Positions 8,640 through 48,171 of a DNA stretch of 59,640 nucleotides are shown here, in pieces. This stretch comes from Deltaproteobacteria bacterium. GTDB lineage: Bacteria; JAEEML01. The stretch spans positions 1 to 59,640 of the forward strand of contig JAEEML010000144.1 in NCBI GenBank assembly GCA_016283195.1, read 5' to 3'. Position numbers and translations under genes: made by a program. The notes under the pieces were generated by a model. That model made no database searches. It was not told the DNA's origin and saw only the letters and a program-made list of their open reading frames with translations. Position 1 is the first letter of the stretch. Each line of letters opens with the position of its first letter.

Positions 8640-8669
8640 AGTATATAGCTCTGGATTTTAAATTGTCAA
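8640..8669 (-). promoter_or_regulatory. Sigma70-like promoter of fibre module 1
   Basis: Minus strand TTGACA-N18-TATACT (or N16-TATATA). Confidence 0.6.
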
Positions 8670-41396: not shown

Positions 41397-42410
41397 TTGA
41401 AAAAGGTTATCATCTTACTATTATTTATGATTATCGCCGTTACCGCCGGCGGTTGGTACACTATCATCAATTATCTTTCCGGCCCCGGTAAAAACGAAAA
41501 ACCGGCCTATATCACCATAAAAAACGGTATGTCGATGAACAGCGCGGCCGAAGCTCTGGCCCGCGAAGGGATAATCGACCACCCCACTTGGTTTTACTAT
41601 TACGCCCGGGCCACCAAGCAAACCACGCTAAAAGCCGGCGAATATGAGATTCCCCCGCATGCCACCCCGGAACAAGTCTTAAAAATACTCTTAAGCGGCC
41701 AGGTAGTGCAGCTTTCCGTAACCATTCCAGAGGGACTTAACTCCTTTGAAATATTTAAGATTATCGAAGATGCCGGTTTAGGAAACGCCAGGGATTTGCA
41801 AAAAGAGTGCGAGAGCAAAGCTTTTATTGCCGCCATGGAACTCCCCGGCCCTACTTGCGAGGGTTATCTCTTCCCGGAGACTTATCGTTTTGCTCGCCAT
41901 TTGCCGGCCAAAACCCTCTTAAGCGGCATGATGAACCTCTTTAAAAAGAATTTTACCAAGGAAATAGAGAGCGCCGGAGCCAAGGTGGGCCTCTCGCCGC
42001 GAGAAATTGTTACTTTAGCCTCCATCATCCAGAAAGAAACCGGCATAGACAGCGAAATGCCGCATATTTCCAGCGTCTTTCATAATCGCCTGGCCAAAAA
42101 TATGCGCCTGGAAACCGATCCGACGGTAATTTATGCCGAAATTCTCGACACCGGCCGTTTTGACGGCGATATTTCTTATAGCGATTTGCGCCGCGAACAC
42201 CCTTATAATACTTATAAAAACACCGGCTTACCGCCGGGCCCCATTGCCAGCCCCGGAAAAAAAGCCCTGGATGCCGCTGTGCATCCCGATAACGGGCGCG
42301 ACCTCTTTTTTGTGGCCACCGGCGACGGCGGGCATGAATTTTGCCCCACTTATGATTGCCATTTAAAGGCTACAGAGCGCTATTTGCGTAAACTCAGAGG
42401 CAAAAAATGA
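41397..42410 (+). CDS. mltG: Endolytic transglycosylase MltG
   Basis: EGYLFPETY, LASIIQKET, DPTVIY, YNTY...GLPPGPI; TTG start after GAGGAG. Confidence 0.94.
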   Translation: MKKVIILLLFMIIAVTAGGWYTIINYLSGPGKNEKPAYITIKNGMSMNSAAEALAREGIIDHPTWFYYYARATKQTTLKAGEYEIPPHATPEQVLKILLSGQVVQLSVTIPEGLNSFEIFKIIEDAGLGNARDLQKECESKAFIAAMELPGPTCEGYLFPETYRFARHLPAKTLLSGMMNLFKKNFTKEIESAGAKVGLSPREIVTLASIIQKETGIDSEMPHISSVFHNRLAKNMRLETDPTVIYAEILDTGRFDGDISYSDLRREHPYNTYKNTGLPPGPIASPGKKALDAAVHPDNGRDLFFVATGDGGHEFCPTYDCHLKATERYLRKLRGKK

Positions 42411-43351
42411 GTGCCCCTGACGGACTCGCTACCGAACTTACCGCTGAGCTTGCCGCTTATTATGATTATCTCACCATTGAGCGCAACAGATCCCCGCGCA
42501 CAGTTGAGAGCTATGAGAGCGATTTAAAACAATTTTTAGAATTTTTAGCCGCGCAAAATGAGCCTAGTCTTAAAGGGCTTAACCAGCGCCTGGTGCGTAA
42601 GTATTTAATTGCCCGCGATAAAGCGGGAGACGGGCCGGCAACGCGCAATCGCAAACTCACCAGCATCCGCTCTTTTCTCCATTATCTTTACCGCCGCGGT
42701 AAAATTAAAGACGATTTCAGCGACCTCTTACAAAGCGCCAAAATGCCCAAAAGATTGCCGCGCAACATCAGCGAAGATGAGGCACAAAATCTTTTGGAAG
42801 AGCCGGAAGTGCCCAAAAAAATTCACGATTCATTAGAGCCATGGCGTCTTCAGAGAGACCACATTATCGCTACTTTGCTCTATGCCACGGGCATCCGGGT
42901 CAGCGAATTAACCGGGCTCACTTTGGGGAGCCTTTCCATTGCCGGGCGCATGATTAAAGTAATGGGCAAAGGCCGCAAAGAGCGCATTGTACCCTTGCCG
43001 GAAGCCATTTTGGGTGATCTGGAATACTATTTACAAAAAGTGCGCCCGACTCTGCTTGGCGGCAAAGAGAGCCAGGCGCTCTTTCCCGGGCCGGACGGCA
43101 GGCCGCTCACCCGCCAAAGCGTAAATTTGCGCCTCGCCGCTCTGGGGCAGGGAAACGGCCTTATGAAACACATTACTCCCCACATGTTGCGCCATAGTTA
43201 TGCCACCCATCTTTTGGCTCATCATGCCGACTTGCGCTCTATTCAGTTGCTTTTGGGCCACACCGGTTTAGGTGCCACCCAGCGCTACACCGCTTTAAGT
43301 TTGCAAGAATTGCAAGATACTTATTTAAAAGCCCACCCGCACGGCAAGTAA
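42407..43351 (+). CDS. XerC/XerD-family tyrosine recombinase
   Basis: ATGIRVSEL, GKGRKER, PHMLRHSYATHLL, LLGH, TQRYT; catalytic set intact. Confidence 0.93.
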   Translation: MSAPDGLATELTAELAAYYDYLTIERNRSPRTVESYESDLKQFLEFLAAQNEPSLKGLNQRLVRKYLIARDKAGDGPATRNRKLTSIRSFLHYLYRRGKIKDDFSDLLQSAKMPKRLPRNISEDEAQNLLEEPEVPKKIHDSLEPWRLQRDHIIATLLYATGIRVSELTGLTLGSLSIAGRMIKVMGKGRKERIVPLPEAILGDLEYYLQKVRPTLLGGKESQALFPGPDGRPLTRQSVNLRLAALGQGNGLMKHITPHMLRHSYATHLLAHHADLRSIQLLLGHTGLGATQRYTALSLQELQDTYLKAHPHGK

Positions 43352-43454
43352 TCACCGCGGGCCGGCGGCAAAAGTCATTGACAGAGAGAGAGAGGATTGG
43401 TAGCAAGATATTTGGCTTTTTTTAGCCTTTGTGCCTCTTTATAAAGGTTTGGTT

Positions 43455-45794
43455 ATGGCCAGCGAACTGGAAATGATGGAAGATGAGCCGACTCCGGTTG
43501 ATGCCGGAACGGATCCCAATATTCAAGCGGAAACGGTTGATGAAGATGATGGCGCTCCCGGCGAGCACACCATGATTGATACCGGCCTTTTGGCCGAATT
43601 TATGGCCGCTCATCCGGAAGATGAGCTGGCAAAGAAAGCCGCCGGAGCCGCGAATGCCGCCGCTTCACCGTTTGCCGAAGATGAAGAACCGGCCGAGGGC
43701 AAGACTTCTATAGCCTCTCTCGATGATATTCAGGCAGCTGCCGAAGAGGCCAATACCCAAAGGACCGCCCCGCCGGAGCCGGTAAAAGCCCGGCCTAAAG
43801 ATCAGCATGAGCACCGCCGCCGGCAAGGAGCGCCGGAAAAAGCCGGGCTCAAGCCCAAGCATCACGCTCTTAAAAACAAGCCGCTACAAGAAGAGCAACC
43901 AGGTACGCTCGATTTCAATACTTTAAATTCGCCGGTGGAAAAAGCTGTAAAGCCGTTTCTGGAAGATCTGCCGCGCAAAGAAGTCAAACAAGCGCCTATT
44001 GATCAAAAAATTCCCACTGCCAGTGTAAAAGCCCCTATTACTTCCGCTCCGGTGGAAGAGATGGAGGATATGTGGGACAACATTGACGACCAGGATATGG
44101 TGGAATGGAGCTCCAGATCGGCCGAGCATCAAGCTCCGGTAATAGAGCCCCAGGCCGAAGCCGCCCAAATAGCTGCTGGCGCTATGGCTGCCGCTGCTCC
44201 GGCCGCAAGCGATAATGTTCCGCGCCTCATTTGCCTAGCCGGCGAATTACATGGCCAGATTTTTCCTTTAAGCGACAAAGAGGTGGTGGTTGGGCGCCAT
44301 GATGATTGCTCAATTATTTTGCGCGATACTTCCATGTCGCGCCACCATGCCATTATTGCGCGGCACGAAGGTGTCTATGTTGTTACCGATCAAAAAAGCA
44401 GCAACGGCACTTTTGTCAACGGACAGCGCATAGAAAAAGCTCGCTTAAGAAGCGGCGATGAAGTTGTTTTCGGCAATGTGGCTTTTAGATTTTTAGAAGC
44501 CGGTGATACCGTAAACAGCGCCGCTCCGCTGGCCGTAAAACCGGGACAAAAGGCGCCGAAAGCCGCACAGCCGACAACTACCGGCCGTCTGCCCAAACGT
44601 TTTTTGGCCGCTGCCGCCGGTGTCACTGTTCTCATGGCTATATTTATGGGCATTATTATCAATAAATTGCGCACACCGGTAAACGATCAGATAGATGCTG
44701 CGCAAATAAGAGCTATTTTTGAAGGCGGCGTCTCGGCTTTTAGAGGCCGCAAATGGAACGAAAGCCTAAACCGCTTTACTGCCCTTTCGCAATTTGAACC
44801 CGGTAGCCAGCTGATAAAGCGCTATATCGAGCGCATAAAACAGGAAACCGAAGTAGAGCAACGCCTAAACTCCATTCAAGATATAATAAGCAAAAAGCGC
44901 TTTGTAGATGCTGTTGTTCTGCTGGAAAAGGTGCCAGAAGAAACCGTTTACAAAGCCGAGGTGAGCGGCCTCAAAGGGCAGATTGAAAACGAAGCGCAAA
45001 AAGAGATAAACAAAGTCCAAGAAGTAATTGACGGCGATGCGGCTGCCGATGCTGTGCCGATGATCGAGGCCTTGCGCCAAACGCTGCCCACTTCTTTCCA
45101 TGGCCAGCTGGATAATTTACTAGCCGCCATAAATCAAAAACAGGAAGAGCTTAAAGAAAAGGAAGCCAGCGAAGCACGCCAGGCCAGTCAGCAGCGCTAT
45201 GCCAGTATCCGCAAAAAAACCGATTCCACAGCTAACCAGGCCATTAACCTCTTTAAAGAGCGGAAAATAGCCGCTGCCCTCAAGCTGCTGGAAGCTAACG
45301 GCGCCCCCAATCAATCAGCCCAGGCCGAGCTCGTTTCTTTATATAATAAGATTACAAAATTCGATGAAGCTTACCAAAGCGCCCGCCAGGAATGGCAATT
45401 CAAAAATGTAGAAGCAGCTATTCCCATGCTCCGCAAAGCTCTCACTTTGGAGAGCAAAATTGCTTCCGGTAAATCTCCTCAGGCTGCTGAACTCAGGCAG
45501 TGGCAAGCCGATATGCTCTTCATAAAAGGTATGCGCTCTTATAGCGCCAAACAGTACCCGCTGGCTTTCCAAAATTTCCAGGAAGCGGTGAACCTCTACC
45601 CCGGCCACACTCAAAGCCAGAACAAGCTAAAGGAAATATCGGATATGGCCGATGAAATGTACCGCAAAGCTTACATTATGAAAGGCACCGATCCCACCCA
45701 GTGCAAAGCTCTTTTGAATCAGGTTTTGCGCATGGTTTCTTCCGGTAATCCGCTTTATAGCAAAGCCCGCGACCTGCTCTCCACCCTGCCGTAA
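43455..45794 (+). CDS. FHA-domain membrane protein with acidic disordered N-terminus and C-terminal TPR-like helices
   Basis: VGRH, SRHHA, SSNGTFVNG; one TM; TPR-like C-terminus. Confidence 0.82.
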   Translation: MASELEMMEDEPTPVDAGTDPNIQAETVDEDDGAPGEHTMIDTGLLAEFMAAHPEDELAKKAAGAANAAASPFAEDEEPAEGKTSIASLDDIQAAAEEANTQRTAPPEPVKARPKDQHEHRRRQGAPEKAGLKPKHHALKNKPLQEEQPGTLDFNTLNSPVEKAVKPFLEDLPRKEVKQAPIDQKIPTASVKAPITSAPVEEMEDMWDNIDDQDMVEWSSRSAEHQAPVIEPQAEAAQIAAGAMAAAAPAASDNVPRLICLAGELHGQIFPLSDKEVVVGRHDDCSIILRDTSMSRHHAIIARHEGVYVVTDQKSSNGTFVNGQRIEKARLRSGDEVVFGNVAFRFLEAGDTVNSAAPLAVKPGQKAPKAAQPTTTGRLPKRFLAAAAGVTVLMAIFMGIIINKLRTPVNDQIDAAQIRAIFEGGVSAFRGRKWNESLNRFTALSQFEPGSQLIKRYIERIKQETEVEQRLNSIQDIISKKRFVDAVVLLEKVPEETVYKAEVSGLKGQIENEAQKEINKVQEVIDGDAAADAVPMIEALRQTLPTSFHGQLDNLLAAINQKQEELKEKEASEARQASQQRYASIRKKTDSTANQAINLFKERKIAAALKLLEANGAPNQSAQAELVSLYNKITKFDEAYQSARQEWQFKNVEAAIPMLRKALTLESKIASGKSPQAAELRQWQADMLFIKGMRSYSAKQYPLAFQNFQEAVNLYPGHTQSQNKLKEISDMADEMYRKAYIMKGTDPTQCKALLNQVLRMVSSGNPLYSKARDLLSTLP

Positions 45795-45848
45795 AAGCTT
45801 TAAGTGGCGTATTTTTAAAAGAAACTTCCTCTTTATATGTCTTTTTAG

Positions 45849-45875
45849 TTGACTCAAAAAAAAAAAAAATAGACT
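45849..45875 (+). promoter_or_regulatory. Sigma70-like promoter with poly(A)14 spacer
   Basis: TTGACT-C(A)14-TAGACT, 15-nt spacer, upstream of fibre module 2. Confidence 0.65.
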
Positions 45876-45948
45876 AATTTATGTTAGATTGTATCAAAAC
45901 GTCTAACACTGGCATATTTAAGCCTTTAAACAGGCCGAGGAGGGCAAA

Positions 45949-46584
45949 ATGAGGCGGACAATCTTAGTAATGGGTGTCTTACTCTTACCGCTTTTGTTGA
46001 GCAGCTGTTCCAATAAACCGGAACAGAATGTGCCGCGCACCAGAGGCGTTAACGAAGCATGTGATGACACAAAAAACCTCTGTGTGGACGGGCTATATTG
46101 CGACAACGGCAAATGCCGCGAATTGTGCAACGAAAACGCCCCCTGCGGCAGTAATGAAAAATGCATTGATAATCGCTGTGTGCCTTGGAGCAATCCAGGT
46201 AGCAATACCGATATTCCAGGTAGTAACACCGATGAGCCTGGCAGCAATACCGATCTTCCCGGCACACAATCACTGGGCGATAATTGCGATGCGCAAAACA
46301 AATGCGCTTCTGGCCTCTCCTGCCTTAGCGGCACCTGTCACAAAAATTGTCAAAATAGCTCAGAATGCCAGACAGGCGAAGAGTGTAGAAATAGTGTTTG
46401 TCAGTTGCCACAAATAGCCGGGGAGACAAACAAAGTGGCTCTGCCGGCCGGCGGCGGACTCACCAACATTGCCGGAAAAACCCAAGGCTCGCGCTACAAA
46501 GTGGAAATACTGGGCGGCGCCATGTCCGGGGCGGCCAAGGGAACTCAAAACTCTGTACAAATCAACGAAGGCTCTTGGAAATAG
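45949..46584 (+). CDS. Cys-rich lipoprotein with C-terminal GSW tail; partner of fibre 2
   Basis: Lipobox LSSC; four 4-Cys modules; ends QINEGSWK. Confidence 0.75.
   Translation: MRRTILVMGVLLLPLLLSSCSNKPEQNVPRTRGVNEACDDTKNLCVDGLYCDNGKCRELCNENAPCGSNEKCIDNRCVPWSNPGSNTDIPGSNTDEPGSNTDLPGTQSLGDNCDAQNKCASGLSCLSGTCHKNCQNSSECQTGEECRNSVCQLPQIAGETNKVALPAGGGLTNIAGKTQGSRYKVEILGGAMSGAAKGTQNSVQINEGSWK
46195..46257 (+). repeat. Three 21-nt coding repeats (PGSNTDx)
   Basis: CCAGGTAGCAATACCGATATT / CCAGGTAGTAACACCGATGAG / CCTGGCAGCAATACCGATCTT. Confidence 0.85.
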
Positions 46585-46602: not shown

Positions 46603-48171
46603 ATGAGAAAGAGCATTTTAAGAGGACTTATGGCTTTTGCCCTGCTGGCGGGCAGCACAACTATGGCAAAGGCCGATGTGGCAAATGTACCGCTCTCTTT
46701 TACTCATCACGGCCTTATTTGGGACGGTGATGAGCTGGCTAGCGGCAACATCAGCATCACCGCCACCATTTATGATGGGGAGGGCAATGCCATCAAAACG
46801 GTTACTAAAGAAGTTACCGTGGAAAATGGCTTTTATAACCTCACCATAGACGAATTAAGCCTTGATGCCATTTTAGCCGCCAAAGACAAATTGGAGCTGG
46901 GCCTAAAAATCGGCGATGATGAAATGGCCGCCCATATTCCCATTTCTTCGGTGCCTTTTGCCATAAGAGCGGCTCATGCCGATAGCGCCTCGACAGCTGC
47001 AAACCTGAGCTGTGACCACTGTGTGACAGAGGATTTGCTCTCAGGAGATATCAATTTAAAACTGGCCAATAGCGGTAACTCTTCCGGAGAAATGGTTATC
47101 CCCAATGGCTCAATCAACAACGAAAAAATTGATTTTAATTATGCCGCTTCCAATGCCAAAGGCGGCCCGGCGACAGAGCTTGCAGCTGAAGTTGTTACCA
47201 CAAACACCATCAAAGAGCTGGCAGTTACCTCCACTAAACTCGCTAACGGCGCCGTTACCAAAGACAAACTAGGCGACAGCTCCGTCGATAGCGCCAAAAT
47301 TTCCGATGGGACAGTTGAACTGGCTGATTTGCATGTGGACTCGGTCAATAGCGCTAAAATTGTCGATGGCTCTATCACTGCCGATGATTTGGGAGCAGAT
47401 TCAGTAATAACAGCCAAAATACTGGATAAAAATGTTACCAATGCCAAATTGGCGGACAATGCTGTAACCACCGACAAAATAGCCAACGGCACCATCACTA
47501 ATGATGATATTAAAAATGGTACCATCGGTTACGGTAAAGTTGTGGCCTCAGAATTTTTAAACAAAATGTATCCTGTGGGCTCTATATATATCAGCACTGC
47601 TCTCAAGACAGCCGCGGAAGTTGCCAGTGCCCTGGGCGGCGGTACATGGGAAGCTTATGCGGCCGGGCGCGTTTTAGTTGGCGTTGGTACAAGCGACCAA
47701 AGTTTCACAATAGGCACCAATTCCGGATCCAGCACAACCAGTTACACACCGGTTGGAACAGTTGGAGGCCACACACTTACTGTAGCTGAGATACCGTCTC
47801 ACAATCACTCATTTACAGGCTCAGCGGCAACAATTACCGTAAAAGGCGGAGATCACACCCATGGTCCAGGTACCCTAACGGGAAAATATTATGGTCGCGA
47901 TAATGATAATAGTGGCGAAACTGTATTTGGTGCTCAAATGGATAACTATAGCGCTTATGATACCTGGGCAAAAGATGGCTCTGTGGTGATCAACGGTGGC
48001 AAGACAGCCGCTTCCGGTAGCCTAACATTGACAGGTTCTTATACTCCAGCTGGGTCTATCGGAAATAAAGGTGGCGGCGGCTCACACAATCACAGTTTCA
48101 CCGGCACCAGCGCCAAAATCAGCACCTTGCAACCTTACATTGTTGTTTATATGTGGCGGCGCAAAGCATAA
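46603..48171 (+). CDS. Secreted phage-tail-fibre-like protein (fibre 2)
   Basis: Signal peptide; VPLSFTHHG...VPFAIRA; 10-aa VTxxKIADGA-like repeats; MYPVGSIYIS...LQPYIVVYMWRR tip. Confidence 0.82.
   Translation: MRKSILRGLMAFALLAGSTTMAKADVANVPLSFTHHGLIWDGDELASGNISITATIYDGEGNAIKTVTKEVTVENGFYNLTIDELSLDAILAAKDKLELGLKIGDDEMAAHIPISSVPFAIRAAHADSASTAANLSCDHCVTEDLLSGDINLKLANSGNSSGEMVIPNGSINNEKIDFNYAASNAKGGPATELAAEVVTTNTIKELAVTSTKLANGAVTKDKLGDSSVDSAKISDGTVELADLHVDSVNSAKIVDGSITADDLGADSVITAKILDKNVTNAKLADNAVTTDKIANGTITNDDIKNGTIGYGKVVASEFLNKMYPVGSIYISTALKTAAEVASALGGGTWEAYAAGRVLVGVGTSDQSFTIGTNSGSSTTSYTPVGTVGGHTLTVAEIPSHNHSFTGSAATITVKGGDHTHGPGTLTGKYYGRDNDNSGETVFGAQMDNYSAYDTWAKDGSVVINGGKTAASGSLTLTGSYTPAGSIGNKGGGGSHNHSFTGTSAKISTLQPYIVVYMWRRKA

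Follow-up and report, generated by a model that had tools for sequence, protein, structure and literature searches.

The window analysed here is a stretch of 59,640 nucleotides, contig C3 of the 3.2-Mb genome G000 (names in C denote contigs of this genome). A promoter-like cassette lies within the 154 nt that separate an FHA-domain gene, which ends at 45794, from a predicted lipoprotein gene, which starts at 45949. Its left edge was formed by a T-rich element 5′ of the −35 box (45835–45848, forward strand), at whose first base the identity with the paralogous cassette on C82 begins. The predicted −35 box, TTGACT (45849–45854), was followed by a 15-nt spacer (45855–45869), consisting of a C (45855) and fourteen A residues (A14, 45856–45869), and by the predicted −10 box, TAGACT (45870–45875), all on the forward strand. 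TTGAC and TAGA were invariant in nine of nine aligned cassette copies. The spacer was delimited from the sequence, the genome-wide run counts and the paralogue alignment. A dyad, TGTTAGA-N13-TCTAACA with the core GTTAG-N15-CTAAC, was located by a genome-wide dyad scan and the cassette alignment at 45882–45908, 7 nt 3′ of the −10 box and over the predicted start site. The sequence also contained a Shine-Dalgarno-like GAGGAGG at 45937–45943 (forward strand). The boxes, the tract and the dyad had been described in the original prediction and were confirmed at these positions. A14 also proved to be the longest homopolymer of the window, as had been claimed, with two T8 runs as the runners-up.

The first downstream gene (45949–46584, forward strand) codes for a Cys-rich predicted lipoprotein of 211 residues, with an LLSSC lipobox-like motif (assigned by eye) and short PGSNTD-type repeats. 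Pfam and PHROG searches gave no match for this protein, and four strain-level homologues were found on other short contigs (P0127, P0128, P0130 and P0133). The second gene (46603–48171, forward strand) codes for a 522-residue fibre-like protein with a signal-peptide-like start, the N-terminal domain shared by its paralogues, a tail-fibre-like stalk and a Gp10_C tip; it matched Pfam Gp10_C and PHROG tail-fibre families. Both products are predicted to be surface proteins, the one from its lipobox-like motif and the other from its fibre-like architecture, as had been proposed. In the region upstream of the FHA-domain gene (43378–43406), TTGACA is followed by (AG)6 and, 17 nt on, by a weak TAGCAA (by eye). 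This is a possible second promoter with a repeat in its spacer; the paralogue search gave no further copy. A XerC/D-like tyrosine recombinase gene, probably a housekeeping one, lies between mltG and the FHA-domain gene (42407–43351), 2.5 kb upstream of the cassette.

Judging by RpoA (contig C149), the host would be a deep-branching, uncultured gut bacterium related to Myxococcota. The four closest RpoA matches shared 71–86% identity and all others at most 66%; the named neighbours (~62–65%) were Myxococcota and Deltaproteobacteria MAGs and Hyalangium, a placement at odds with assigning this RpoA to a Treponema. The RpoA search in GTDB gave four loci at 38–47% identity and no close genome. Public runs containing the stretch were labelled gut, sheep, bovine or plain metagenome, with one run unlabelled. 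The contamination estimate of the assembly was 4.18%.

Long A/T runs and promoter spacing in G000

G000 has 297 A/T runs of length 8 but 26 of length 9, 4 of 10, 2 of 11 and none of 12; beyond this gap there is one run of 13, three of 14 and one of 15. Geometric extrapolation from length 9 predicted 0.015–0.3 runs of at least 13, against five observed. All five were flanked by TTGAC just 5′ and TAG just 3′, an arrangement found in none of the six runs of 10–12 and in four of the 23,034 runs of 5–9. Lipoprotein-type genes followed each of the five. The A14 element is real, and its placement is non-random.

Across 1,090 upstream regions, the pattern TTGAC.-N-TA...T occurred 26 times at a spacing of 16 nt, 36 times at 17 nt and 17 times at 18 nt, over a background of ~3–5 per spacing in ten shuffles. 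At 15 nt there were six matches, near background, three of them from the fibre-cassette family. The organism thus uses the ordinary 16–18 nt spacing and the A14 site is one base short, which bears out the earlier statement that this spacer is shorter than those of other promoters. A consensus promoter scanner working with spacers of 16–18 nt only made no call at the A14 site. The promoter of fibre module 1 (8640–8669, reverse strand), found by promoter scan and used for comparison, is TTGACA-18 nt-TATACT; it is unrelated to the cassette, with neither tract nor dyad, and its spacer is ordinary, as originally described. Sequence, paralogue conservation and genome-wide spacing agree with the original view that the tract fills a −35/−10 spacer, and from this pattern we infer that TTGACT and TAGACT form a real promoter.

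We consider it probable that the tract serves as a slippage-tuned expression dial on the spacer of a predicted σ70 promoter for the lipoprotein and fibre-adhesin pair. Replication slippage would add or remove one A, rotating the −35 box relative to the −10 box, so that the promoter would be low or off at A14 (15-nt spacer) and on at A15–A16. Assuming 10.1 and 10.5 bp per helical turn, the computed twist relative to a mixed 17-nt spacer was about −51° for A14, −15° for A15, +20° for A16 and +56° for A17. These values support the dial, as do the TTGAC and TAG flanks of all five long runs and the share of the fibre-cassette family among the 15-nt matches. By its sequence, the locus appears to have the anatomy of a promoter-spacer SSR contingency locus of the vlp/porA type, with a tract of excess length between the boxes, non-random placement and predicted surface-protein genes downstream. 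Operons bearing a tract would switch independently, and cells of the population would consequently differ in the set of fibre tips they display. Spacers that are interrupted or mixed would represent locked versions.

Promoter cassettes of the fibre paralogues

G000 contains 19 fibre paralogues with a common N-terminal domain and diverse C-terminal tips, and eight of them are preceded by a full cassette (−35 box, spacer, −10 box and GTTAG-N14-16-CTAAC dyad). Three cassettes carry pure tracts, namely A14 in C3 and in C82 (15-nt spacers) and A15 in C22 (16-nt spacer). The other five spacers are not pure and measure 16 nt in C33, C121 and C58, 17 nt in C122 and 15 nt in C47; this contrast between pure and other spacers favours the dial. 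The C122 spacer, A11-T-A4, extends 17 nt to TAGACC, with an alternative −10 box, TAAAAT, at 12 nt. Two observations count against the dial. C47 holds an intact 414-residue fibre gene behind a 15-nt spacer that has no long run, and C128, which encodes a lipoprotein of another family, has boxes 13 nt apart and no dyad. The boxes were also found at 16 nt without a dyad in C164, and the dyad alone in C136.

These copies modify two of the earlier claims. The 15-nt spacer had been described as a low or OFF state that one or two added A residues would switch ON. One added A does bring the spacer to 16 nt, the length found in most paralogues without a tract. Since C47 is intact with a fixed 15-nt spacer, however, this length may mean weak expression and not a fully silent promoter. 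Likewise, the picture of one default and one switchable fibre is right about the ordinary spacer of module 1 but too narrow, given 19 fibre paralogues of which three have pure tracts.

Long tracts also occur outside the fibre family. Another lipoprotein family is represented on C169 (locus L036, C169:7419) by a pure A13 in a 15-nt spacer, and on C8 (17720–17931) by a paralogue with an interrupted run and a 16-nt spacer; the two promoter regions are 88% identical, and their contrast again favours the dial. In front of a lipoprotein gene on C99 (L035, C99:561), the run directly follows TTGAC, with 13 nt to TAGGAT or 18 nt to TAAGTT.

The dyad GTTAG-N14-16-CTAAC occurred 13 times in G000 against 0.33 expected per spacing. 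Nine of the 13 lie at fibre-module starts, and the others stand in front of two lipoprotein-type genes, one gene remnant and one unrelated gene. The dyad of the original prediction is therefore present, but as a family-wide element and not one specific to this locus. Across cassettes it begins 6–8 nt after the −10 box (7 nt at C122 when measured from TAGACC), and five core pairs (of eight pairs) are invariant in nine copies. The arms do not vary, their spacing is nearly constant and they cover the predicted start site, which points to an operator; the dyad is likely an operator and possibly a 5′ hairpin. As a conserved RNA hairpin it did no better than as an operator. Of 500 shuffles, 28 attained the observed covariation, which was not significant, and 57 attained the percent paired; folding was modest, with z-scores from −0.45 to −2.7, and an Rfam search gave no match. 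A dimeric regulator binding at GTTAG-N14-16-CTAAC would likely gate the family, adding a second, non-random layer to the switching. Dyads without a tract cassette (C149:23604, C68:24895, C68:26764 and C136:637) suggest a small regulon, mostly of surface proteins. At L037 (C176:10763–10820), a collapsed cassette with an 8-nt spacer and A7 has kept its dyad, and the sequence after it appears to be what is left of a Fib_succ_major-type gene.

Other long repeats of G000, (ACTGA)5-16, (AG)13 and (TTGC)17, adjoin surface-protein or RM genes as well, which is a further point in favour of the dial. The (ACTGA)5-16 repeats were found at eight loci (L039–L046: C2:5645, C68:3443, C70:1253, C75:23843, C81:31605, C125:2510, C126:23819 and C139:3161). 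They have similar flanks and in most cases lie in front of, or between, genes for lipoproteins and Fib_succ_major-type proteins, with two reaching contig ends, and form a candidate second family of repeat switches. At L022 (C68:38838–38863), a lipoprotein and two-fibre module, (AG)13 stands directly after TGGCAC-N5-TTGCA, which we take to be a match to the σ54 consensus. A close paralogue or allele of this module (C19:132–389) has (AG)4 with the same motif just upstream. The shorter repeat in C19 and the σ54-like motif upstream of both ruled out (AG)13 as a 25-nt −35/−10 spacer. Further repeats in gene leaders were (TTGC)17 at L049 (C31:4912), (GCAA)12 at L048 (C6:26742) and (CTTGATTG)11 at L047 (C91:5268).

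Tract length in contigs and in a related species

Eight public sequencing runs were compared through per-run contigs, and the tract was bridged in two of the eight. The X1 contig spans 45705–45942 at the C3 copy with A14, no differences and no gaps at depth 3. The X5 contig, assigned to C82 by its loose left end and a G at 45948, bridges the C82 copy with A14 and no gaps at depth 2.3. Both runs belong to one study and may be the source of the assembly. The X3 and X4 contigs end at the masked stretch 45852–45881. Since contigs drop rare variants and the tract region is masked as a repeat, this is a weak test of length variation. No length difference at any one locus was seen in the two bridging contigs at depth 2–3, which counts against the dial; lengths differed between paralogues only (A14 and A15). 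The constancy of A14, also in the related species described below, is the chief evidence against the dial; it would be expected if the population rests a single step short of ‘on’, but equally if selection holds the tract at one length. The RNA run X12 covers 45650–45804 only, the end of the upstream gene, and says nothing on expression of the module.

A metagenome pattern scan for tracts of 7–19 A, with cassettes carrying other mismatches outside its scope, gave seven loci. Five matched G000's own contigs and one, L016, was informative; L013 was rejected as an unrelated chance match. The genes neighbouring L016 share 69% nucleotide identity with G000 (C138:4156–5118), which places L016 in a related species. 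There, TTGACT-C-A14-TAGACT is kept exactly while the dyad interior and the leader have diverged, a pattern that supports the dial; the identical tract length in the two species counts against it. A scan of viral contigs for the tract design gave one locus. No match to the locus was found among 30 other genomes, all of them related merely at the level of domain, and the fibre alignment retrieved no related sequence from GTDB or from viral contigs.

That the tract arose as an error of assembly or sequencing, or by neutral expansion of an A-rich spacer, is hardly credible. Several non-tract spacers are indeed A-rich (C33, C128), and an assembler could collapse C3 and C82, which are near-identical over 121 nt. 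However, A14 recurs in per-run contigs whose flanks identify the locus and in the separate assembly containing L016, and all five long tracts are placed non-randomly. The artefact reading, which had been named as a way to refute the original prediction, is thus largely refuted already: X1 reproduces A14 without a gap, although the assembly may derive from that very sample.

The site in G000 that corresponds to L016 lacks the module, and the sequence shared by C3 and C82 starts at 45835, with unrelated left flanks. This suggests that the promoter and its genes travel or are copied together, as a unit that may be mobile or lineage-specifically duplicated. The same boundary, and the module that the L016 species carries where G000 has none, could speak for the tract being a scar or recombination end of the moving, duplicating module. 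Alternatively, the tract could be the U-tail of a terminator on the reverse strand, where the dyad precedes T14. Either way, a tract that is not a promoter spacer is very unlikely. The gap from hairpin to T run would be 12 nt, and a scanner calls no terminator there; Rfam gave no match. The tracts of C169 and C99 are dyad-free, yet they lie between TTGACA and TAG, and in the paralogues without a tract the TTGAC..TAGA arrangement persists around mixed spacers.

A more serious competitor of the dial, though still an unlikely one, is a fixed structural spacer, in which A14 would have been selected as a stiff, over-twisted tract forming a deliberately weak 15-nt promoter. A regulator at the dyad, or an activator, would then exert the control, and slippage would have no adaptive role. 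The recurrence of A14 at C3, C82 and L016 and in both bridging contigs is what such a spacer would give, and the fixed 15-nt spacer of C47 and the conservation of the dyad across the fibre family point the same way. Invariant promoter tracts are also on record in the published excerpts consulted: neither the poly-T tract of M. agalactiae vpma nor the A5/A6 tract of meningococcal nspA phase-varied, and both cases weigh against the dial. In contrast, three non-tract paralogues have mixed 16-nt spacers, so the tract is not required, and C22 carries A15. In the separate lipoprotein family, C169 is pure at 15 nt whereas C8 is interrupted at 16 nt. Moreover, a pure 14-mer should slip regardless of its purpose.

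Known promoter switches and a possible role for the fibres

The closest parallel to the dial comes from M. hyorhinis, where, in the portions of the two papers used here, every vlp gene has a poly(A) tract in its promoter and indels in the spacer switch transcription (PMC10502178, PMC2268961; Citti and Wise 1995 as cited there). This precedent favours the dial. The likeness lies in a poly(A) tract within the −35/−10 spacer, common to several members of a surface-protein family with a common promoter. The differences are that vlp switching is proven whereas at the A14 locus it is inferred, and that the pure tract is found here in only three of the eight cassette copies. In addition, the operon encodes a lipoprotein and a fibre, a dyad is added, and the host is Myxococcota-related with intact MutS and MutL genes, the latter counting against the dial. 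In Neisseria porA and fetA, the length of a promoter homopolymer tunes the expression of a surface protein. The same is described for opc in the consulted part of PMC6389960. The Neisseria tracts are G/C runs on single genes, whereas here an A tract serves a paralogous family. In N. meningitidis, according to the excerpt of PMC5084427, homopolymers of at least 8 are predominantly variable, in favour of the dial, and 95% of the weak candidates are A/T tracts, which argues against it.

With regard to the cargo, the MAT fibres of Bdellovibrio bacteriovorus, as outlined in part of PMC10769870, form a large exported family in which the N-terminal base is conserved and the phage-like tips are exchanged. 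The 19 paralogues of G000 resemble them as a multigene fibre family with a conserved N-terminal domain and variable tips, and differ in that several of them come with a lipoprotein partner. The N-terminal domain aligned with one hypothetical protein of a Bdellovibrio sp., not verified as MAT (hhalign probability 42%, E 2.6e-4), and none of the four PDB sequence matches was a MAT chain. The weak Bdellovibrio alignment suggests MAT membership without establishing it. The text of the MAT paper examined (PMC10769870; supplements aside) contained no mention of phase variation, bet-hedging, heterogeneity or subpopulations. Within titles and the beginnings of abstracts (supplements aside), we found no literature on repeat-based phase variation in predators, gut Myxococcota or Bdellovibrio-type fibres. 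Most likely, the A14 element belongs to a known class of phase-variable promoters; we found no report of one in this lineage or with such a cargo.

The Discussion of the MAT paper leaves unsettled how predators deploy many redundant fibres across prey (PMC10769870). We tentatively suggest, as a possibility against which the odds still stand, that the host is a predator or epibiont and bets on several outcomes at once in recognizing prey or surfaces. Some of its 19 MAT-like fibres would be hard-wired (16–17 nt spacers) and others would rest one A short of on and flip randomly, with the whole set gated by a regulator at GTTAG-N14-16-CTAAC. If true, phase variation would act here on the adhesin repertoire of a predator and not on the antigens of a pathogen. 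G000 offers a built-in comparison set of near-identical promoters with pure, interrupted and mixed spacers, together with a candidate operator. With this set, random versus regulated deployment of fibres becomes testable by reporters and deep reads, without culture of the organism.
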